Virus record (IMG/VR): IMGVR_UViG_2558860472_000007
Strand: one strand, 5' to 3'
DNA: 10,207 bases
Source of the DNA: a virus
Taxonomy: Duplodnaviria; Heunggongvirae; Uroviricota; Caudoviricetes
This document shows, one piece after another, positions 1-10,207 of this stretch (the stretch's first letter is position 1; the number at the start of each line of letters is the position of its first letter). The translations under genes were made by a program, and so were the position numbers. The notes below the pieces were generated by a model. It searched no databases, was not told where the DNA came from, and worked only from the letters and a program-made list of their open reading frames with translations.

Positions 1-198
1 CAGCAACTGATTAATCAGGCCAACGATTATATGAACAGTAAACAATGGCCTGGTAAAGCGGCTATTGGTCGTCTGAAAGGTGAGGAACTGGCGCAATATA
101 ATCTGTGGCTGGATTATCTGGACGCACTGGAGCTGGTCGATACTTCCAGTGCGCCAGATATTGAATGGCCTACGCCTCCGGCAGTTCAGGCCAGATGA
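1..198 (+). CDS. Tail fibre assembly chaperone (P2 gpG / Mu U-like), 3' end only; gene starts upstream of the window
   Basis: Frame 1 reads open from position 1 to TGA at 196..198: ...QQLINQANDYMNSKQWPGKAAIGRLKGEELAQYNLWLDYLDALELVDTSSAPDIEWPTPPAVQAR. The C-terminal motif (LDYxDAL...D.S.AP.I.WP) matches that of the complete chaperone-like ORF at 170..772 on the other strand. Absent from the ORF track only because there is no in-window start codon. Confidence 0.75.
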   Translation, partial: QQLINQANDYMNSKQWPGKAAIGRLKGEELAQYNLWLDYLDALELVDTSSAPDIEWPTPPAVQAR

Positions 199-772
199 CA
201 TCCGGCGCGGTGCTGGTATCTGTTGCCGTCACCGCGTCAATGTAATCCAGCACAGCGTTAAGCCGGGTTGTTTCTGCCTGCGTCAGTTTACGTCCGGCCT
301 GCAATTTCAGTTGAATCAGACTGATGGAAGCCATTGCAGTATCAATCAGCGACTGGCGCTGTGCTTCTGCTGCATCTACTGCGGCGCTATGCTGTGCCTC
401 AGTATCGGTCACCCATTTCTCACCATCCCATTTATCGTATGGCGTTAATGGGGCGATAGTGGTTGTATTTTCAGGGTAATCACCCGGAGCGGTGATTTCT
501 TTTGATTCTCCTGTTTTGGTGCTATAGACCGTTTCACCGCGATGGTCTGGCACATACTCCCATGAGTTTAAATCTGCTGAACGGCAGATTGCATAACCAG
601 CTTTATGTATACCTGGTGCATCTAAACAAGAACATGCCGGGATACCGACGCCAACAGCAAGATATTCAGTTGATGTGGAAAGATATTCCCGCGTCTTGCT
701 GTCGTAGTTAAACACGGTCACATCACCCGCTACCGTGGCAATCAGTTCGCTGTTTAATTTTGCCTGTGCCAT
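170..772 (-). CDS. Alternative tail fibre assembly chaperone (inverted copy, Mu U'-like)
   Basis: 200-aa ORF ending ...RLNAVLDYIDAVTATDTSTAPDVIWPELPEA, paralogous at the C-terminus to the + strand partial gene at 1..198. Its ATG overlaps the stop of the upstream fibre-tip cassette (TAATG on the - strand at 770..774), suggesting translational coupling. Orientation opposite to the rest of the tail operon. Confidence 0.8.
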   Translation of the reverse strand: MAQAKLNSELIATVAGDVTVFNYDSKTREYLSTSTEYLAVGVGIPACSCLDAPGIHKAGYAICRSADLNSWEYVPDHRGETVYSTKTGESKEITAPGDYPENTTTIAPLTPYDKWDGEKWVTDTEAQHSAAVDAAEAQRQSLIDTAMASISLIQLKLQAGRKLTQAETTRLNAVLDYIDAVTATDTSTAPDVIWPELPEA

Positions 773-1290
773 TATGCAGCCCTCACAATGAAGTTAAATG
801 CGACGTTGCGCGGCCGGTTTTCAGTGGCAACAGGAACGATTTTAGATGCATCAAAGCTAAAGTTTACAGTCCCATTACCTGTCCCTGAAGGTGCAAGAGT
901 TAATCCTAAAGTTTGTGACACATTCTCAACAGTGACGCCAAATGCACCATCACAATAGATACTTGGGTACAATTGAGTATTACCAAACTTGCCAATTATA
1001 TTTCTGATGGCATCGCCCTGCGATGATAAGATTGCACGCCCAACATCAACCCCGCGCCCGTCATCCCAGCCGCGAATAAATTCACCGCGTAAATCAGGCA
1101 ATTTATTTGTCGGGTAAGCCTTTGCCAGTTCCGGGTATTCTTCAGCAGAAAAAGCCGCACCATTGCATTTCAGCCAGCCTGTTGGCGGAGTGGCTGAAGG
1201 CCACGGAACAGGCACACCAACAGGCAATGCAGAGCCTTCTCCCAAACCAACGTTTATGAAAATGCAGAGATAACGGCTAACTGGCATCAT
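772..1290 (-). CDS. Alternative tail-fibre C-terminal (receptor-binding tip) cassette, probably silent in this orientation; the functional unit likely runs from the crossover site (about 1236) to the stop at 772
   Basis: 172-aa ORF with a tail-fibre tip / tail-collar-like motif (PWPSATPPTGWLKCNGAAFSAEEYPELAKAYP...). The recombination site at 1237..1262 lies inside its 5' end (encoding IFINVGLGEG). The ATG at 1290 is probably fortuitous: in Mu G / P1 C-type systems the variable cassette is expressed only when fused to the constant fibre N-terminus by inversion. Confidence 0.7.
   Translation of the reverse strand: MMPVSRYLCIFINVGLGEGSALPVGVPVPWPSATPPTGWLKCNGAAFSAEEYPELAKAYPTNKLPDLRGEFIRGWDDGRGVDVGRAILSSQGDAIRNIIGKFGNTQLYPSIYCDGAFGVTVENVSQTLGLTLAPSGTGNGTVNFSFDASKIVPVATENRPRNVAFNFIVRAA
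1237..1262. other. DNA-invertase crossover site (gix/pix/hix/cix-type, 26 bp)
   Basis: TTCTCCCAAACCAACGTTTATGAAAA fits the Gin-family consensus TTNTCNNAAACCNNGGTTTNNGANAA (recalled from memory) with one mismatch (C for G at the first base of the right half-site). It sits 55 bp upstream of the invertase ATG and at the 5' boundary of the inverted fibre cassette. Confidence 0.65.
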
Positions 1291-1317
1291 CTCCGGTTTT
1301 TATTCAGGGGATCCATC

Positions 1318-1911
1318 ATGCTTATTGGCTATGTCCGCGTATCAACAAATGACCAGAACACGGAATTGCAGCGTAACGCGCTGGAGTGCGCAGGATGTGA
1401 GCTGATTTTTGAGGACAAAATCAGCGGCACGAAGTCCGACAGGCCGGGACTGAAAAAACTGCTCAGGACATTATCGGAGGGGGATACACTGGTAGTCTGG
1501 AAGCTGGACCGGCTGGGGCGTAGTATGCGGCATCTGGTCATTCTGGTTGAGGAGCTGCGCGAACGCGGCGTTAATTTTCGCAGCCTGACGGATGCTATTG
1601 ATACCAGCACGCCGATGGGGCGTTTTTTCTTTCATGTGATGGGTGCCCTGGCCGAAATGGAACGAGAACTCATTGTCGAGCGGACACGCGCCGGACTGGA
1701 AGCGGCCAGAGCCAAAGGTCGTATTGGTGGCAGACGTCCGAAACTCACCGCGAGTGAGTGGGAGCAGGCCGGGCGGTTGTTGGCTGCAGGGGAATCACGT
1801 CAACGCGTGGCACTGATTTTTGATATTGGCCAGTCCACGCTCTATAAAAAATTCCCCGCCTCCGTGACAAAAAATAAATTGTGTCATCCCTTAGCCAACC
1901 GGGACAAATAG
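1318..1911 (+). CDS. Serine-recombinase DNA invertase (Gin/Pin/Hin/Cin family)
   Basis: 197-aa ORF MLIGYVRVSTNDQNTELQRNALECAGCELIFEDK...GDTLVVWKLDRLGRSMRHL...FRSLTD.IDTS.PMGRFFFHVMGALAEMERELI.ERT..GL..A...GRIGGR.PKLT. Serine-recombinase catalytic motifs (YVRVST, VWKLDRLGRS) plus a C-terminal helix-turn-helix region, with near-identity at the N-terminus to Gin/Pin as I recall them. GGAG-type RBS upstream. Confidence 0.95.
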   Translation: MLIGYVRVSTNDQNTELQRNALECAGCELIFEDKISGTKSDRPGLKKLLRTLSEGDTLVVWKLDRLGRSMRHLVILVEELRERGVNFRSLTDAIDTSTPMGRFFFHVMGALAEMERELIVERTRAGLEAARAKGRIGGRRPKLTASEWEQAGRLLAAGESRQRVALIFDIGQSTLYKKFPASVTKNKLCHPLANRDK

Positions 1912-1970
1912 CCTGACATCTCCGGCACAACTGAAAATATCACTCACCCATTAACCACGGAGTTAAACGG

Positions 1971-3161
1971 ATGAGTGACTATCATCACGGCGTGCAGGTG
2001 CTGGAGATTAACGACGGCACCCGCGTCATTTCCACCGTATCCACCGCCATTGTCGGCATGGTCTGCACGGCCAGCGATGCGGATGCGGAAACCTTCCCCC
2101 TCAATAAACCGGTGCTGATTACCAATGTGCAGAGCGCAATTGCAAAGGCCGGTAAAAAAGGCACGCTGGCGGCATCGTTGCAGGCCATCGCCGACCAGTC
2201 AAAACCGGTCACCGTTGTCGTGCGTGTGGAAGACGGCACCGGCGACGACGAGGAAGCGAAACTCGCGCAGACCGTTTCCAATATCATCGGCACCACTGAC
2301 GAAAACGGTCAGTACACCGGACTGAAAGCCCTGCTGGCGGCGGAGTCGGTTACCGGTGTTAAACCGCGTATTCTCGGTGTGCCGGGACTGGACACCAAAG
2401 AGGTGGCGGTTGCACTGGCATCAGTCTGTCAGAAGCTGCGCGCTTTCGGGTATATCAGCGCATGGGGCTGTAAAACCATTTCCGAGGTGAAAGCCTACCG
2501 CCAGAATTTCAGCCAGCGTGAGCTGATGGTCATCTGGCCGGATTTCCTCGCATGGGATACGGTCACCAGTACCACCGCCACCGCGTATGCCACCGCCCGT
2601 GCGCTGGGTCTGCGTGCCAAAATCGACCAGGAGCAGGGCTGGCATAAAACGCTGTCCAACGTCGGGGTGAACGGTGTTACCGGCATCAGCGCATCTGTAT
2701 TCTGGGATTTGCAGGAGTCCGGCACCGATGCTGACCTGCTTAACGAGTCAGGCGTCACTACGCTGATTCGTCGCGACGGTTTCCGATTCTGGGGTAACCG
2801 TACCTGCTCTGATGACCCGCTGTTCCTCTTTGAAAACTACACCCGCACCGCACAGGTACTGGCCGACACGATGGCTGAGGCGCACATGTGGGCGGTGGAC
2901 AAGCCCATCACCGCAACGCTGATTCGTGACATCGTTGACGGCATCAATGCCAAATTCCGTGAGCTGAAAACAAACGGCTATATCGTGGATGCGGCCTGCT
3001 GGTTTAGCGAAGAATCCAACGATGCGGAAACCCTCAAGGCCGGAAAACTGTATATCGACTACGACTATACACCGGTGCCTCCTCTCGAAAACCTGACCCT
3101 GCGCCAGCGTATTACCGATAAATACCTGGCGAATCTGGTCACCTCGGTTAACAGCAATTAA
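1971..3161 (+). CDS. FI: Contractile tail sheath protein (P2 gpFI)
   Basis: 396-aa ORF MSDYHHGVQVLEINDGTRVISTV..., same length and recognisable sequence as P2 FI; GGAG RBS 8 nt upstream; first gene of the FI-FII-E-T-U-D block. Confidence 0.95.
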   Translation: MSDYHHGVQVLEINDGTRVISTVSTAIVGMVCTASDADAETFPLNKPVLITNVQSAIAKAGKKGTLAASLQAIADQSKPVTVVVRVEDGTGDDEEAKLAQTVSNIIGTTDENGQYTGLKALLAAESVTGVKPRILGVPGLDTKEVAVALASVCQKLRAFGYISAWGCKTISEVKAYRQNFSQRELMVIWPDFLAWDTVTSTTATAYATARALGLRAKIDQEQGWHKTLSNVGVNGVTGISASVFWDLQESGTDADLLNESGVTTLIRRDGFRFWGNRTCSDDPLFLFENYTRTAQVLADTMAEAHMWAVDKPITATLIRDIVDGINAKFRELKTNGYIVDAACWFSEESNDAETLKAGKLYIDYDYTPVPPLENLTLRQRITDKYLANLVTSVNSN

Positions 3162-3173
3162 GGAGCCTGACCG

Positions 3174-3692
3174 ATGGCAATGCCGCGCAAACTCAAGTTA
3201 ATGAACGTCTTTCTGAACGGCTACAGCTATCAGGGCGTCGCAAAGTCCGTCACGCTGCCAAAACTGACCCGTAAGCTCGAAAACTATCGCGGTGCGGGGA
3301 TGAACGGCAGCGCACCGGTAGACCTCGGCCTTGATGACGATGCGCTGTCAATGGATTGGTCGCTCGGGGGCTTCCCGGATTCGGTTATCTGGGAGCTTTA
3401 CGCCGCAACCGGTGTGGATGCCGTACCGATTCGTTTTGCAGGCTCTTACCAGCGTGACGATACCGGCGAAACGGTGGCCGTCGAGGTGGTCATGCGTGGA
3501 CGTCAGAAAGAAATCGACACCGGCGAGGGTAAACAGGGAGAAGACACTGAGTCGAAAATCTCCGTGGTCTGCACCTATTTCCGGCTGACGATGGACGGTA
3601 AGGAGCTGGTCGAAATTGACACCATCAACATGATTGAGAAGGTGAACGGCGTCGACCGGCTGGAGCAACACCGCCGCAATATCGGCCTGTGA
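3174..3692 (+). CDS. FII: Tail tube protein (P2 gpFII)
   Basis: 172-aa ORF immediately after FI with an AGGAG RBS; length and position match P2 FII. Confidence 0.93.
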   Translation: MAMPRKLKLMNVFLNGYSYQGVAKSVTLPKLTRKLENYRGAGMNGSAPVDLGLDDDALSMDWSLGGFPDSVIWELYAATGVDAVPIRFAGSYQRDDTGETVAVEVVMRGRQKEIDTGEGKQGEDTESKISVVCTYFRLTMDGKELVEIDTINMIEKVNGVDRLEQHRRNIGL

Positions 3693-3748: not shown

Positions 3749-4024
3749 ATGAACAAAGAAAATGTCATTACCCTGGACAATCCGGTCAAACGTGGTGAGC
3801 AGGTTATCGAACAGGTCACGCTGATGAAACCCAATGCCGGGACGCTACGCGGTGTCAGTCTGGCTGCGGTTGCAAACTCCGAAGTCGATGCACTGATTAA
3901 GGTGCTGCCGCGCATGACGGCACCGATGCTGACCGAGCAGGAAGTCGCCGCGCTGGAACTGCCTGACCTTGTGGCGCTGGCCGGTAAGGTGGTCGGTTTT
4001 TTGTCGCCGAACTCGGTGCAGTGA
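3749..4024 (+). CDS. E: Tail assembly chaperone gpE (zero-frame product)
   Basis: 91-aa ORF MNKENVITLDNPVKRGEQVIEQV... in the position between the tube and tape-measure genes where a tail assembly chaperone gene is typical; ends shortly after a T6G slippery run. Confidence 0.88.
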   Translation: MNKENVITLDNPVKRGEQVIEQVTLMKPNAGTLRGVSLAAVANSEVDALIKVLPRMTAPMLTEQEVAALELPDLVALAGKVVGFLSPNSVQ

Positions 4025-4176
4025 CGTTTCCGAAAAATCTCTCGGTCGATGACCTGATGGCGGATGTGGCAGTGATATTTCACTGGCCGCCATCAGAACT
4101 GTATCCCATGAGCCTGACCGAACTCATCACATGGCGCGAAAAGGCGCTCCGGCGAAGCGGAAACACGAATGAGTAA
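3749..4176 (+). CDS. E': gpE+E' fusion made by a programmed -1 ribosomal frameshift at T TTT TTG (3997..4003); about 142 aa
   Basis: The -1 frame is open for 57 further codons directly after the slippery heptamer (FFVAELGAVTFPKNLSVDDLMADVAVIFHWPPSELYPMSLTELITWREKALRRSGNTNE) and stops at 4174..4176, overlapping the T start at 4169. This is the conserved tail-chaperone frameshift arrangement (P2 E/E', lambda G/GT). 85 + 57 = 142 aa. Confidence 0.8.
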
Positions 4177-6616
4177 CAATGTAAAATTACAGGTATTGCT
4201 CAGGGCTGTTGACCAGGCATCCCGCCCGTTTAAATCCATCCGCACAGCGAGTAAGTCGCTGTCGGGGGATATCCGGGAAACACAAAAATCACTGCGCGAG
4301 CTGAACGGTCAGGCATCCCGTATTGAGGGATTTCGCAAGACCAGTGCACAGCTCGCCGTGACTGGTCATGCACTTGAAAAGGCACGGCAGGAGGCCGAAG
4401 CCCTTGCCACACAGTTTAAAAACACCGAACGTCCGACCCGTGCTCAGGCGAAAGTGCTGGAATCCGCAAAGCGTGCGGCGGAGGACTTACAGGCGAAATA
4501 TAACCGCCTGACGGATTCCGTTAAACGCCAGCAACGGGAACTGGCCGTTGTGGGAATTAATACCCGCAATCTTGCACATGATGAGCAGGGACTGAAAAAC
4601 CGTATCAGTGAAACCACCGCACAGCTTAACCGGCAGCGCGACGCGCTGGCGCGTATCAGTGCGCAACAGGCAAAACTTAACGCAGTCAAACAGCGTTATC
4701 AGGCCGGAAAGGAACTGGCCGGAAATATGGCCTCAGTAGGCGCTGCCGGTGTGGGGATTGCGGCGGCGGGAACGATGGCCGGAGTTAAGTTGCTGATGCC
4801 CGGTTATGAGTTTGCGCAGAAAAACTCAGAATTGCAGGCCGTGCTCGGAGTGGCAAAAGACTCCGCCGAAATGACCGCACTACGCAAACAGGCGCGCCAG
4901 CTCGGCGACAATACCGCCGCCTCGGCGGATGATGCGGCCGGTGCACAGATAATCATCGCGAAAGCGGGTGGGGATGTTGATGCCATTCAGGCGGCAACGC
5001 CGGTCACGCTGAATATGGCGCTGGCGAACCGCCGCACGATGGAAGAAAACGCCGCCCTGCTGATGGGGATGAAATCCGCCTTTCAGCTTTCAAACGATAA
5101 GGTCGCTCATATCGGGGATGTTCTCTCCATGACGATGAACAAAACCGCCGCCGATTTTGACGGCATGAGCGATGCGCTGACCTATGCCGCACCTGTGGCA
5201 AAAAATGCCGGTGTCAGCATTGAAGAAACCGCCGCAATGGTCGGGGCGCTGCATGATGCAAAAATCACAGGCTCAATGGCGGGGACGGGAAGCCGTGCCG
5301 TGTTAAGCCGCCTGCAGGCACCGACGGGAAAAGCATGGGATGCACTCAAAGAGCTTGGCGTGAAAACCTCAGACAGCAAGGGAAACACCCGGCCAATATT
5401 TACCATTCTGAAAGAAATGCAGGCCAGTTTTGAGAAAAACCGGCTCGGTACTGCCCAGCAGGCTGAATACATGAAAACTATTTTCGGGGAGGAGGCCAGC
5501 TCAGCCGCCGCCGTGCTGATGACTGCCGCCTCAACCGGAAAGCTGGACAAACTGACCGCTGCGTTTAAAGCCTCAGACGGGAAGACTGCCGAGCTGGTAA
5601 ATATCATGCAGGACAACCTCGGCGGTGACTTTAAGGAGTTTCAGTCCGCTTATGAGGCGGTGGGGACAGACCTGTTTGACCAGCAGGAAGGCGCACTGCG
5701 TAAGCTCACGCAGACGGCCACAAAGTATGTGTTAAAACTCGACGGCTGGATCCAGAAAAACAAATCACTGGCGTCAACCATCGGCCTCATTGTCGGTGGC
5801 GCGCTGGCGCTTATTGGCATCATCGGTGCCATTGGTCTTGTAGCCTGGCCGGTTATCACTGGCATCAATGCCATCATCGCGGCAGCAGGCGCAATGGGGG
5901 CAGTCTTCACGACGGTTGGCAGTGCTGTTATGACCGCCATCGGGGCGATTAGCTGGCCGGTTGTGGCCGTGGTGGCCGCCATTGTCGCCGGGGCGTTGCT
6001 TATCCGTAAATACTGGGAGCCTGTCAGCGCATTCTTTGGCGGTGTGGTGGAAGGGCTGAAAGCGGCATTTGCGCCGGTGGGGGAACTGTTCACGCCACTT
6101 AAGCCGGTGTTCGACTGGCTGGGCGAAAAGTTACAGGCCGCGTGGCAGTGGTTTAAAAACCTGATTGCCCCGGTCAAAGCCACTCAGGACACCCTGAACA
6201 GTTGCCGTGACACGGGGGTCATGTTTGGGCAGGCACTGGCTGACGCGCTGATGCTGCCGCTTAATGCGTTCAACAAACTGCGCAGCGGTATTGACTGGGT
6301 ACTGGAAAAACTCGGTGTTATCAACAAAGAGTCAGACACACTTGACCAGACCGCCGCCAGAACTCAAGCCGCCACGTATGGCAGCGGTGGTTATATTCCG
6401 GCGACCAGCTCTTATGCAGGCTATCAGGCTTATCAGCCGGTCACGGCACCGGCTGGCCGCTCTTATGTAGACCAGAGTAAAAACGAATATCACATCAGCC
6501 TGACGGGTGGTACTGCGCCGGGGACACAGCTTGACCGCCAGTTACAGGATGCGCTCGAAAAATACGAGCGGGATAAACGTGCGCGCGCCCGTGCCAGCAT
6601 GATGCATGACGGTTAA
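4169..6616 (+). CDS. T: Tail tape measure protein (P2 gpT)
   Basis: 815-aa ORF with a coiled-coil-like N-terminal region, a long hydrophobic Gly/Ala/Ile-rich central block and a C-terminal region; size and position match P2 T. Confidence 0.95.
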   Translation: MSNNVKLQVLLRAVDQASRPFKSIRTASKSLSGDIRETQKSLRELNGQASRIEGFRKTSAQLAVTGHALEKARQEAEALATQFKNTERPTRAQAKVLESAKRAAEDLQAKYNRLTDSVKRQQRELAVVGINTRNLAHDEQGLKNRISETTAQLNRQRDALARISAQQAKLNAVKQRYQAGKELAGNMASVGAAGVGIAAAGTMAGVKLLMPGYEFAQKNSELQAVLGVAKDSAEMTALRKQARQLGDNTAASADDAAGAQIIIAKAGGDVDAIQAATPVTLNMALANRRTMEENAALLMGMKSAFQLSNDKVAHIGDVLSMTMNKTAADFDGMSDALTYAAPVAKNAGVSIEETAAMVGALHDAKITGSMAGTGSRAVLSRLQAPTGKAWDALKELGVKTSDSKGNTRPIFTILKEMQASFEKNRLGTAQQAEYMKTIFGEEASSAAAVLMTAASTGKLDKLTAAFKASDGKTAELVNIMQDNLGGDFKEFQSAYEAVGTDLFDQQEGALRKLTQTATKYVLKLDGWIQKNKSLASTIGLIVGGALALIGIIGAIGLVAWPVITGINAIIAAAGAMGAVFTTVGSAVMTAIGAISWPVVAVVAAIVAGALLIRKYWEPVSAFFGGVVEGLKAAFAPVGELFTPLKPVFDWLGEKLQAAWQWFKNLIAPVKATQDTLNSCRDTGVMFGQALADALMLPLNAFNKLRSGIDWVLEKLGVINKESDTLDQTAARTQAATYGSGGYIPATSSYAGYQAYQPVTAPAGRSYVDQSKNEYHISLTGGTAPGTQLDRQLQDALEKYERDKRARARASMMHDG

Positions 6617-6630
6617 GGAGGTGACGAAAA

Positions 6631-7110
6631 ATGATGCTCGCGTTAGGTATGTTTGTTTTTATGCGCCAGACGCTGCCACACCAGACCATGCAGCGTGAAT
6701 CAGATTATCGCTGGCCGTCAAATTCCCGTATCGGTAAACGGGATGCCTACCAGTTTCTCGGTGTGGGTGAGGAAAACATGACGCTTGCCGGTGTGCTTTA
6801 TCCTGAACTGACCGGCGGAAAGCTGACGGTGACCACGCTCAGACTGATGGCAGAGGAAGGCCGGGCGTGGCCGTTGCTGGATGGCACCGGCATGATTTAC
6901 GGCATGTATGTCATCAGCAGGGTGAGTGAAACAGGGAGTATTTTCTTTGCAGACGGCACACCCCGGAAAATTGATTTTACGCTGTCGCTCACCCGCGTTG
7001 ATGAATCACTGGCCGCGCTTTATGGCGATATCGGTAAACAGGCGGAATCGCTCATCGGTAAGGCTGGCAGTATGGCGACCAGATTCACGGGTATGACGGG
7101 GGCGGGATAA
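6631..7110 (+). CDS. U: Tail protein gpU
   Basis: 159-aa ORF with an AGGAGG RBS 9 nt upstream; length and position match P2 U. Its stop overlaps the D start (TAATG). Confidence 0.9.
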   Translation: MMLALGMFVFMRQTLPHQTMQRESDYRWPSNSRIGKRDAYQFLGVGEENMTLAGVLYPELTGGKLTVTTLRLMAEEGRAWPLLDGTGMIYGMYVISRVSETGSIFFADGTPRKIDFTLSLTRVDESLAALYGDIGKQAESLIGKAGSMATRFTGMTGAG

Positions 7111-8273
7111 TGCTGGATGCGCTGACATTTGATGCAGGCAGTACACTGACGCCGGATTATATGCTGATGCTCGACAGCAGGGATATTACCGGCAATATCA
7201 GCGACCGTCTGATGAGCATGACCCTGACGGATAACCGGGGCTTTGAGTCTGACCAGCTTGATATTGAACTGAATGATGCCGACGGGCAGGTCGGGCTGCC
7301 GGTTCGTGGCGCTGTCCTGACGGTGTATATCGGCTGGAAAGGTTTTGCCCTGGTATGCAAAGGGAAATTTACCGTTGATGAGGTCGAACACCGGGGCGCG
7401 CCGGATGTGGTCACCATCCGCGCCCGGAGTGCAGATTTTCGCGGGACGCTCAATTCCCGCCGTGAAGGCTCCTGGCATGACACCACGCTCGGTGCGATTG
7501 TTGAGGCGATAGCCTCCCGTAACAGGCTGGAAGCCAGTGTCGCGCCGTCACTGGCAGGAATTAAAATCCCGCACATCGACCAGTCGCAGGAGTCCGACGC
7601 GAAATTCCTGACCCGTCTTGCAGAACGCAACGGCGGTGAGGTGTCGGTAAAAATGGGAAAACTGTTGTTTCTCAAAGCGGGGCAGGGGGTGACGGCCAGT
7701 GGTAAAAAAATCCCGCAGGTCACCATAACCCGCAGCGACGGCGACCGCCATCATTTTGCGATTGCTGACCGTGGAGCCTATACCGGCGTAACGGCAAAGT
7801 GGTTACACACCAAAGACCCGAAGCCGCAAAAGCAGAAGGTAAAACTGAAACGCAAAAAGAAAGAGAAACACCTGCGCGCACTGGAGCACCCGAAAGCGAA
7901 ACCGGTCAGGCAGAAGAAAGCGCCTAAAGTACCGGAAGCGCGCGAAGGTGAATACATGGCCGGTGAGGCTGACAACGTTTTTGCCCTGACCACGGTATAT
8001 GCCACAAAAGCGCAGGCCATGCGCGCCGCTCAGGCGAAGTGGGATAAACTGCAACGGGGCGTTGCGGAGTTCTCCATCAGCCTGGCTACCGGTCGGGCAG
8101 ATATTTACACGGAAACACCGGTCAAAGTGTCTGGCTTTAAGCGCGTCATAGACGAGCAGGACTGGACAATCACTAAGGTGACACACTTTCTGAATAATTC
8201 CGGCTTCACGACGTCCTTAGAGCTTGAGGTCAGGCTTTCTGATGTGGAGTACGAAACAGAAGATGATGAGTGA
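7110..8273 (+). CDS. D: Tail protein gpD
   Basis: 387-aa ORF, same length and position as P2 D, translationally coupled to U; contains an internal lysine-rich stretch. Confidence 0.9.
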   Translation: MLDALTFDAGSTLTPDYMLMLDSRDITGNISDRLMSMTLTDNRGFESDQLDIELNDADGQVGLPVRGAVLTVYIGWKGFALVCKGKFTVDEVEHRGAPDVVTIRARSADFRGTLNSRREGSWHDTTLGAIVEAIASRNRLEASVAPSLAGIKIPHIDQSQESDAKFLTRLAERNGGEVSVKMGKLLFLKAGQGVTASGKKIPQVTITRSDGDRHHFAIADRGAYTGVTAKWLHTKDPKPQKQKVKLKRKKKEKHLRALEHPKAKPVRQKKAPKVPEAREGEYMAGEADNVFALTTVYATKAQAMRAAQAKWDKLQRGVAEFSISLATGRADIYTETPVKVSGFKRVIDEQDWTITKVTHFLNNSGFTTSLELEVRLSDVEYETEDDE

Positions 8274-8354: not shown

Positions 8355-8573
8355 ATGTTTCATTGTCCTTTATGCCAGCATGCCGCACATGCGCGTACAA
8401 GTCGCTATATCACTGACACGACAAAAGAGCGTTATCACCAGTGCCAGAACGTGAATTGCAGCGCCACGTTCATCACTTATGAGTCGGTACAGCGATACAT
8501 CGTGAAGCCGGGAGAAGTCCACGCCGTAAGACCGCACCCGTTGCCGTCAGGGCAGCAAATTATGTGGATGTAA
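8355..8573 (+). CDS. ogr: Ogr, zinc-finger late-gene transcriptional activator
   Basis: MFHCPLCQHAAHARTSRYITDTTKERYHQCQNVNCSATFITYESVQRYIVKPGEVHAVRPHPLPSGQQIMWM, 72 aa with a Cys4 zinc-finger arrangement (CPLC...CQNVNC), recognised as P2 Ogr / E. coli OgrK. The ORF track extends this to 8292 (93 aa); I take the internal ATG at 8355 as the start because it gives the canonical 72-aa protein. Confidence 0.9.
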   Translation: MFHCPLCQHAAHARTSRYITDTTKERYHQCQNVNCSATFITYESVQRYIVKPGEVHAVRPHPLPSGQQIMWM

Positions 8574-8584
8574 TTACAAACAGG

Positions 8585-8610
8585 AAGCCCCTCAGTCGAG
8601 GGGCTTTTTT
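8585..8610 (+). terminator. Rho-independent terminator downstream of ogr
   Basis: Perfect 7-bp GC-rich stem GCCCCTC / GAGGGGC with a 4-nt loop (AGTC), followed by TTTTTT (8605..8610). Confidence 0.75.
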
Positions 8611-8674
8611 GTCGATGTGGTCAATGTGTGGACGTGACCAGAAATAAATCCTTTTATTTCATTGTATTACGCGT

Positions 8675-8701
8675 AAAAAATAAGCCCGTGTAAGGGAGAT
8701 T
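8675..8701. other. Candidate P2-type attachment core (attR), coinciding with the 3' end of cyaR
   Basis: AAAAAATAAGCCCGTGTAAGGGAGATT matches the P2 att core as I recall it (from memory, not verified). It lies exactly at the transition from phage genes to host genes. Confidence 0.6.
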
Positions 8702-8761
8702 ACACAGGCTAAGGAGGTGGTTCCTGGTACAGCTAGCATTTTATGGGTTATGTTTTTCAGC
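8675..8761 (-). ncRNA. cyaR: CyaR (RyeE) Hfq-dependent small RNA
   Basis: Minus-strand sequence GCTGAAAAACATAACCCATAAAATGCTAGCTGTACCAGGAACCACCTCCTTAGCCTGTGTAATCTCCCTTACACGGGCTTATTTTTT matches CyaR as I remember it: the CACCUCCUUA anti-Shine-Dalgarno-like motif, and a terminator hairpin (GCCUGUGUAA / UUACACGGGC) followed by a U-tract. The gene lies downstream of yegQ, as in E. coli. Confidence 0.8.
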
Positions 8762-8768
8762 GAAACGG

Positions 8769-8811
8769 ATGATAACCTTAATAAATACAGCTGTATGTGA
8801 TCGGTTTCTAA
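8769..8811 (-). promoter_or_regulatory. cyaR promoter: candidate -10 element and class II CRP site
   Basis: On the - strand, TATCAT sits at -13..-8 relative to the inferred cyaR 5' end (plus coords 8769..8774). A CRP-like site TTAGA-N6-TCACA (plus coords 8796..8811) is centred near -42, consistent with the known cAMP-CRP dependence of cyaR. Exact transcription start is inferred. Confidence 0.5.
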
Positions 8812-8845
8812 GAATTTTCCATCCGGGAAAAATAATCGAAATTAA

Positions 8846-10207
8846 TCACTTACCGTGGGGATTACGCGTGGTTTCCCCGGAGAAATTACGCATCAGCAGC
8901 GCGTAATTGAGCTCAAGATCCTGCGGGACCGGGAGCCACACAGTATAACCATCGCCTGGTGCTATCGGCATAGCTTCGCCTTTGGCGTTTTCCATGTGCT
9001 CAAGGGTAAAATTAATGTTGCCTTGCGGCGTCATCAGCTCAAGGCTGTCGCCAACGGAGAATTTATTTTTCACCGCTACCGCCGCGAGGTCCCCCTTGCG
9101 CTCACCGGTAAACTCACCAACAAACTGCTGGCGGTCAGAAACTGAATAACCGTATTCGTAGTTCTGATAATCGTCGTGAGTATGACGACGCAGGAAACCT
9201 TCAGTATAGCCACGATGCGCCAGACCTTCCAGAGTTTCCAGCAGGCTGGTATCGAACGGTTTTCCCGCAGCGGCGTCATCGATAGCTTTGCGGTAAACCT
9301 GTGCGGTGCGTGCACAATAGTAGAAAGATTTGGTACGACCTTCGATTTTCAGCGAATGCACGCCCATTTTGGTCAGGCGTTCTACATGGGCGATGGCGCG
9401 CAGATCTTTCGAGTTCATGATGTAAGTGCCGTGCTCATCTTCAAACGCGGTCATATACTCGCCCGGACGCTGGGCCTCTTCGATCATAAACACTTTGTCG
9501 GTTGGTGCGCCGATACCCAGCGTCGGCTCAACATTTTGCACCGGAATCGGCTCGTACTTGTGTACGATGTTGCCAACATCATCTTCTTTCCCTTCCTGGA
9601 CGTTGTACTCCCAGCGGCAGGCGTTGGTGCAGGTGCCCTGGTTCGGGTCGCGCTTGTTGATATAGCCAGAGAGCAGGCAGCGACCGGAGTAGGCCATGCA
9701 CAGCGCGCCGTGAACGAAGATCTCGATCTCCATATCCGGCACCTGATTGCGGATCTCTTCAATCTCTTCCAGCGACAGCTCGCGAGAGAGGATCACGCGG
9801 GTCAGGCCCATTTGCTGCCAGAATTTCACCGTCGCCCAGTTCACGGCGTTAGCCTGCACCGAAAGGTGGATCGGCATTTCAGGGAAGTGCTCACGCACCA
9901 GCATAATCAGCCCTGGATCGGACATAATCAGCGCATCCGGCCCCATTTCCACCACCGGTTTCAGGTCACGGATAAAGGTTTTCAGCTTGGCGTTGTGCGG
10001 TGCAATGTTGACCACGACATAAAACTTTTTCCCCAGCGCGTGGGCTTCATTGATGCCGAGCTGAAGATTTTCGTGGTTGAATTCGTTGTTGCGCACACGC
10101 AGGGAATAACGCGGCTGGCCCGCATAAACAGCATCTGCGCCATAAGCGAAAGCGTAACGCATATTTTTCAGCGTTCCCGCCGGGGAAAGGAGTTCCGGTT
10201 TAAACAT
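8846..10207 (-). CDS. yegQ: Peptidase U32-family protein YegQ/TrhP (tRNA U34 hydroxylation)
   Basis: 453-aa ORF MFKPELLSPAGTLKNMRYAFAYGADAVYAGQPRYSLRVRNNEFNHENLQLG... recognised as E. coli YegQ. Its start codon is the last three bases of the window, so the promoter is outside. Confidence 0.93.
   Translation of the reverse strand: MFKPELLSPAGTLKNMRYAFAYGADAVYAGQPRYSLRVRNNEFNHENLQLGINEAHALGKKFYVVVNIAPHNAKLKTFIRDLKPVVEMGPDALIMSDPGLIMLVREHFPEMPIHLSVQANAVNWATVKFWQQMGLTRVILSRELSLEEIEEIRNQVPDMEIEIFVHGALCMAYSGRCLLSGYINKRDPNQGTCTNACRWEYNVQEGKEDDVGNIVHKYEPIPVQNVEPTLGIGAPTDKVFMIEEAQRPGEYMTAFEDEHGTYIMNSKDLRAIAHVERLTKMGVHSLKIEGRTKSFYYCARTAQVYRKAIDDAAAGKPFDTSLLETLEGLAHRGYTEGFLRRHTHDDYQNYEYGYSVSDRQQFVGEFTGERKGDLAAVAVKNKFSVGDSLELMTPQGNINFTLEHMENAKGEAMPIAPGDGYTVWLPVPQDLELNYALLMRNFSGETTRNPHGK

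Follow-up and report, generated by a model that had tools for sequence, protein, structure and literature searches.

The locus examined here raises the question of whether the tail-fibre genes that lie beside a DNA invertase gene, at one end of a viral sequence, form a switch by which one fibre tip and its chaperone are exchanged for another, and whether the segment concerned occurs in both orientations in nature. The sequence (hereafter the window) is a stretch of 10,207 nucleotides from the IMG/VR record IMGVR_UViG_2558860472_000007. An earlier note on this DNA had likened the architecture of its first 1,911 positions to that of the Mu G, P1 C and e14 P segments, a comparison that has proved apt. 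In the reading adopted here, which we hold at a probability of about 0.93, an invertible tail-fibre segment of 1,865 bp extends into the window with its right-hand 1,249 bp, and the invertase gene completes positions 1..1911.

Prophage setting and crossover sites

The window is the right half of a P2-like (Peduovirus) prophage, integrated beside the host gene yegQ (Table 1). The late-region order of P2, i.e. V W J I H G - FI FII E E' T U D ogr - att, is matched according to the annotation of Escherichia coli ABW_A19 and of phage pro483, and in both of these the switch occupies the same position, H-G-switch-FI; the pro483 module at this G/FI place also contains an annotated 'DNA invertase'. A 27-mer at positions 8675..8701 is att-core-like, the core sequence with which it is compared being the one we take to be that of the attachment site. 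The closest match to the whole window among complete E. coli genomes is 98%. An exact 81-nt pattern from the window occurs in 10 IMG/VR contigs, none of them more than 97.9% identical, and gave no match in species-representative genomes.

Table 1. Features of the window, with positions counted from its first nucleotide
Feature	Position	Strand	Supporting detail
Tail-fibre assembly gene, 3' end (Caudo_TAP)	1..198	+	PF02413, E=2.7e-17; last 65 codons
Second assembly gene, complete, 200 aa (Caudo_TAP)	170..772	-	Pfam, E=5.5e-33
ORF with Phage Tail Collar domain	772..1290	-	PF07484, E=6.6e-16
Silent tip cassette, 158 codons	772..1249	-	GLGEGSALP... to stop
Right crossover site, 26 bp, pix-type	1237..1262	+	
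Serine DNA invertase gene, 197 aa, Pin/Gin/Cin family	1318..1911	+	Resolvase, E=2e-52; HTH_7, E=7.7e-13
Putative recombinational enhancer (sis element), invertase codons 7-30	1336..1407	+	Homology to P1 cin enhancer
FI tail sheath gene, P2 type	1971..3161	+	Phage_sheath_1 and related Pfam domains
FII tube	3174..3692	+	
E/E'	3749..4176	+	TTTTTTG at 3997..4003, E/E' junction
Tape measure T	4169..6616	+	
U	6631..7110	+	
D	7110..8273	+	
ogr	8355..8573	+	Ogr zinc finger domain
Host gene yegQ/trhP	8846..10207	-	

The right crossover site reads TTCTCCCAAACC-AA-CGTTTATGAAAA. It is the same in every base as the e14 site beside pinE in E. coli K-12, and its 12-2-12 layout is shared with gixL and gixR of Mu and with cixL and cixR of P1, as found in the reference genomes. 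Strand exchange is predicted at the central AA, between positions 1249 and 1250, and the tip cassette would therefore span 772..1249, its first codons, G-L-G-E, being supplied by the inner half-site. The cassette had originally been placed from 772 to about 1236; its presence, and the crossover site at its 5' end, are upheld, but its end has been moved to 1249. The parts named in the earlier note are all there, at the positions it gave or no more than a few bases away.

That the window begins inside the segment, as the earlier note had recognized, is borne out by the position of the partner site. Since the left half of the segment lies outside the window, we infer the left site from the locus of E. 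coli ABW_A19 (NZ_CP067307.1; locus coordinates denoted L001), which was used to read this half and is 100% identical to window positions 1..2614. An inverted copy of the crossover site, proposed to be sought within 3 kb upstream, is found there inside the tail-fibre gene H (L001 8372..8397, TTCTCACATACC-TT-GGTTTGGGAGAA), some 615 bp before the window opens. From the position of this partner it follows that the invertible segment is 1,865 bp long, extending over L001 8385..10249, which corresponds to window -615..1249. The genome from which the window itself derives should thus carry the site TTCTCACATACCTTGGTTTGGGAGAA about 615 bp upstream, within its gene H.

The two sites constitute the top inverted repeat of the ABW_A19 region (L001 8372..8398 versus 10236..10262, the latter being window 1236..1262), and 1,837 nt separate the arms. 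The perfect inverted repeat measures 14 bp only; the corresponding 14-mer, TTCTCCCAAACCAA, is present in exactly two copies, inverted with respect to each other, in 20 kb of the ABW_A19 locus, where 0.12 would be expected by chance. On their inner sides the two sites repeat each other perfectly in inverted orientation, and from these halves each tip takes its opening codons, G-L-G-E; the core dinucleotide, read from the conserved half, is AA at both. A search with the half-site plus core for a third crossover site, such as would make a multi-state shufflon like the E2348/69 prophage or p15B, revealed none in these 20 kb, where ABW_A19 has the identical fibre/invertase module, and the window holds a single copy. 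With two sites only within these 20 kb, the ABW_A19 copy is therefore a simple, two-state version of the switch.

Fibre tips, gene H and chaperones

In ABW_A19, gene H occupies L001 7558..8736 and is followed by a chaperone gene at 8758..9198. The constant part of H comprises 276 codons and bears the PF12571 N-terminal tail-fibre domain. In the orientation of the window, its tip belongs to Gp53-like_C and the silent tip to Collar; these are separate Pfam families, which is consistent with recognition of different receptors. Each tip is followed by its own chaperone, both within the segment. The expressed chaperone is full length in ABW_A19 (146 aa), lies inside the invertible segment and has a C-terminus nearly identical to that of e14 TfaP; its gene is the plus-strand assembly gene whose 3' end had been recognized in the window up to position 198. 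The second, different assembly gene that had been described as convergent with it is likewise confirmed by its Pfam domain (Table 1). The two genes overlap by 29 bp, and their products are 37.5% identical, over the C-terminal ~70 aa only. The silent chaperone exhibits 92.5% amino acid identity to e14 TfaE over 200 aa, and the silent tip 57% to e14 StfE, the N-terminus being conserved and the distal part divergent.

The silent tip cassette has neither a start codon nor a promoter of its own. When the segment is flipped in silico, the constant part of H runs in frame into the silent tip (...LTYLGLGEGSALPVG...IVRAA*, the product being also given as ...LTYLGLGEGSALPVGVP...IVRAA*) and ends at the stop codon of that tip, after which the TfaE-like chaperone gene follows in the sense orientation. 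The native and the flipped forms of H are both open to a stop, and both are annotated as tail proteins, the native one in ABW_A19 having 392 aa and the flipped one in E. coli UTME-13 having 434 aa. The earlier proposal that inversion swaps both the expressed tip and its chaperone is thus supported by this in-frame flip and by UTME-13, which carries the segment in the flipped state.

The open reading frame at 772..1290 could alternatively be regarded as an independent, separately expressed tail protein of 172 aa, rather than as a silent cassette. PGAP/RefSeq indeed annotates it as 'phage tail protein' (WP_023568727.1), and an ATG is present at position 1290. The first 14 codons, however, are not part of the segment, but occupy the stretch that separates the crossover site from the invertase gene; the GGAG that precedes the ATG abuts it directly, with zero spacer; and the protein would be devoid of PF12571, the domain which the constant part of H supplies. 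Furthermore, the e14 counterpart, stfE, is annotated as a pseudogene, and in UTME-13 the same codons belong to the 434-aa H. A separate protein is consequently very unlikely. As the 14 opening codons lie outside the segment, this part of the frame, together with the ATG at 1290, is best explained as an artefact of ORF calling. The frame is thus read here as a silent tip, extended in annotation beyond the crossover point.

Orientation among strains and the invertase

The right junction that would result from inversion was constructed and then searched against complete E. coli genomes, among which UTME-13 has it at 100% identity in a single contiguous piece. A base-by-base comparison of this strain with ABW_A19 shows that all 1,865 bp of the segment are the exact reverse complement, with 0 mismatches, between identical flanks, and that the two sequences differ solely between L001 8399 and 10235, strictly within the inverted repeats. 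At the UTME-13 locus, the chaperone proteins are identical but are encoded on swapped strands, H has 434 aa, and the invertase protein (WP_001605738.1) is common to both strains. The perfect agreement over 1,865 bp points to a very recent inversion. Among the IMG/VR relatives, one (L008) also has the segment in the opposite orientation.

The four possible junctions were counted in complete E. coli genomes as single-place matches with coverage of at least 80%. The native left junction was found in 30 genomes and its flipped form in 189, and the native right junction was present in 230 and its flipped form in 108. Since all four types are represented, both tips occur in expressed as well as in silent positions. 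The segment inverts, and the support for this consists of differences between strains, i.e. at the level of the population.

Such differences might in principle originate without the invertase, either by RecA-dependent recombination between short inverted repeats or by errors of assembly. Inverted repeats can recombine, and assemblers collapse mixed populations to a single orientation. A perfect repeat of 14 bp, however, is far short of the substrates that RecA uses efficiently, and the breakpoints fall precisely at a canonical invertase site, next to an invertase gene that is intact. ABW_A19 and UTME-13 are, moreover, both finished assemblies, and a mixed-population artefact would in itself mean that inversion is active. 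This origin of the two orientations is accordingly regarded as extremely improbable, and site-specific inversion is retained as their explanation.

The invertase gene is intact, lies outside the segment and keeps a fixed orientation. Its assignment to the Gin family, made from the sequence in the earlier note, is corroborated by identities of 87% to PinE, 77% to Gin and 79% to Cin. The Pfam Resolvase domain covers residues 3-135 and HTH_7 residues 138-181; the catalytic serine S9, together with R7, D64, R65 and R68, is invariant with respect to Pin, Gin and Cin. The best match among solved structures is Gin (3uj3, E=6.8e-94), compared with E=3.5e-33 for gamma-delta resolvase, and the protein thus appears nearer in sequence to characterized invertases than to resolvases. 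Catalysis of the inversion by this enzyme is probable, and dependence on Fis and an enhancer may be expected from sequence likeness to the characterized systems. When positions 1336..1407 are set against the 72-bp enhancer annotated in P1 cin, 59 of the 72 bases agree and no gap is required, yet the stretch is also conserved coding sequence, and its function as an enhancer is for that reason treated as putative. The candidate 15-bp Fis cores, which were placed by eye, are separated by 47 or 49 bp according to the register chosen, where a spacing of 48 bp was sought.

These properties also bear on the possibility that the locus is a frozen relic, in which the invertible architecture has been preserved while the switch is dead, the invertase being unexpressed or the enhancer decayed, such that the two orientations reflect old events. 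A simple scan of 1263..1317 disclosed no convincing sigma-70-like promoter for the invertase directly upstream of the gene; the second half of the enhancer region has been judged by homology only; and some relatives, such as L010 from IMG/VR, have lost the greater part of the invertase gene. Against this stand the intact invertase reading frame, which keeps all of the residues invariant among Pin, Gin and Cin, the matching core dinucleotides of the two sites, and the flipped copy in UTME-13, in which 0 mismatches have accumulated over 1,865 bp. A dead switch is therefore considered unlikely, and the description that follows is that of a functional one.

The proposed mechanism begins with the late operon, whose transcription of H originates outside the segment; the gene reaches the 26-bp crossover site at codon ~276. 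In the present orientation, the constant part of H continues into the gp53-like tip, followed by the 146-aa chaperone, whose 3' end opens the window. The collar-type tip and the TfaE-like chaperone meanwhile remain silent on the opposite strand, because they are without a promoter and without the N-terminal part of H. The invertase may then pair the two inverted sites, probably assisted by host Fis bound to the enhancer in the invertase's own gene. Cleavage at the central AA/TT dinucleotide and rotation of the strands by 180 degrees would flip the segment, thereby placing the constant part of H in frame with the second tip, with the second chaperone co-transcribed. As a result of such flipping, we propose, a population of lysogens could release virions of two receptor specificities.

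Relation to known switches and biological meaning

Of the systems available for comparison, the P segment of e14 provides a detailed counterpart. The gene order is the same, namely the constant part, tip, tfa, convergent tfa', silent tip, site and invertase; the convergent tfa genes also overlap by 29 bp; the right-hand sites are identical, as are the inner half-site and core at both ends; and the segment measures ~1.8 kb in both. To judge by these features and by the identity of the silent chaperone to TfaE, this module and the P segment of e14 are in fact closely related. The two nevertheless differ in several respects. The e14 element is lambdoid, whereas the present one resides in a P2-like myovirus prophage, between G and FI. 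The expressed tip and chaperone are other ones, the tip here being gp53-like and the chaperone 55% identical to TfaP; the distal half of the silent tip has diverged; and the invertase has a C-terminus that is 13 aa longer than that of PinE.

The likeness to the G segment of Mu, with Gin, and to the C segment of P1, with Cin, lies in the layout of Sc, Sv and U plus an inverted Sv' and U', in the 26-bp sites with a 2-bp core, and in the presumed placement of the enhancer at the 5' end of the invertase gene. Their segments are longer (3 kb in Mu and 4.2 kb in P1) and bear other tips, and in P1 the invertase gene is situated on the other side, where cixL overlaps its 3' end. The Hin/hix system, responsible for flagellar phase variation in Salmonella, employs an invertase of the same family and a Fis/enhancer mechanism; Hin flips a promoter, unlike the coding cassettes that are exchanged here.

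Among P2-like phages, pro483 exhibits the corresponding order of H, tfa, tfa', tip, DNA invertase and sheath, at ~92% DNA identity. In the P2-like prophages of E. coli E2348/69, phase-variable inversions of ~1.8 to 2.2 kb have been documented by sequencing and PCR, including one prophage with three sites and four variants (PMC4272514). These prophages differ from the present element in their tip alleles and, in the case of the three-site prophage, from the two sites in 20 kb and the two states of the ABW_A19 copy. A survey of P2-like hotspots reports that this locus frequently harbours a DNA invertase whose neighbouring genes are inverted (bioRxiv 10.1101/2024.10.15.618418). The locus is thus an ordinary member of the long-known Din-family invertase tail-fibre switches, of the e14/Pin subtype. 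It adds no new concept to the paradigm of the Din invertases or of the tail-fibre switch.

A wider reading of these relationships is that silent tip, chaperone, site and invertase form a portable module, recently moved between lambdoid elements (e14 and HK97-like side tail fibres) and P2-like myoviruses, in which its point of insertion is the G/FI hotspot of P2. Given that the crossover sites are identical, its invertase could possibly also act in trans on the e14 segment or on those of further prophages that share the cell. This proposal is speculative and on balance doubtful; if it were true, the switching of fibres would be coupled across co-resident prophages.

For the two-state switch itself, the consequences concern both annotation and biology. 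The 172-aa 'phage tail protein' reported by automatic pipelines is to be understood as a silent cassette, and one and the same prophage will appear in different assemblies with a 1.9-kb stretch inverted, which should be taken neither for a rearrangement nor for a misassembly. The prophage is able to produce fibres of two types, and both pairs of tip and chaperone should be weighed in the prediction of host range and in the engineering of such phages.

Module exchange and the state of the invertible segment

The prophage locus of E. coli ABW_A19 (L001) is identical to the window over positions 1..2614 (100%), after which the identity falls to only about 97-98%. The drop occurs at ~2615, within the tail sheath gene FI, and the ABW_A19 prophage adjoins fieF/pfkA rather than yegQ. 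This break, together with the different neighbours of the prophages, shows that the fibre/invertase module was swapped between two P2-like prophages at different integration sites, with its breakpoint within FI.

Among the IMG/VR relatives, L008 (IMGVR_UViG_2877923215_000001) carries the segment at 4192..6024 in the orientation opposite to that of the window. At ~4371 in L010 (IMGVR_UViG_2740892118_000002), the gene for the TfaE-like chaperone adjoins the equivalent of window position 1751, and the invertase gene is reduced to its final ~160 nt; the fibre of this relative appears to have been frozen by deletion.

Gene calls, frameshift motif and prophage right end

Features of the window
Feature	Position	Strand	Remark
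Silent tip cassette ORF	772..1290 (L001 9772..10287)	-	RefSeq/PGAP: independent 172-aa 'phage tail protein' WP_023568727.1
E and E+E'	3749..4176		P2-type tail-assembly chaperone pair
Hairpin and T-run	8586..8611		terminator-like; downstream of ogr
27-mer AAAAAATAAGCCCGTGTAAGGGAGATT	8675..8701		att core-like; downstream of ogr
yegQ/trhP	8846..10207	-	host gene, beyond the 27-mer

The initial 14 codons of the WP_023568727.1 ORF lie outside the invertible segment. In E. coli UTME-13, where the segment is inverted, the ORF for the other tip is called as a 'gp53-like domain-containing protein', an artefact similar to the WP_023568727.1 call. Immediately upstream of the E stop codon stands TTTTTTG (3997..4003), the slippery heptamer for a programmed -1 frameshift of E/E+E'.

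Positions 8574..8845 form the right end of the prophage. The 27-mer corresponds to the P2 att core, and E. coli K-12 keeps a P2 remnant (ogrK) at the same location, beside yegQ/trhP.

Links to e14 and lambdoid phages

The convergent chaperone genes overlap on opposite strands by 29 bp (170..198), exactly as do tfaP and tfaE of e14, and the C-terminal residues of both chaperones are therefore encoded by the same DNA. HK97 and HK106, two lambdoid siphoviruses, carry side tail fibre (stf) and tfa genes whose DNA is 92-95% identical to that of the silent tip and TfaE-like chaperone (118..1258); this shows that tip and chaperone cassettes have been exchanged horizontally between unrelated phage types.
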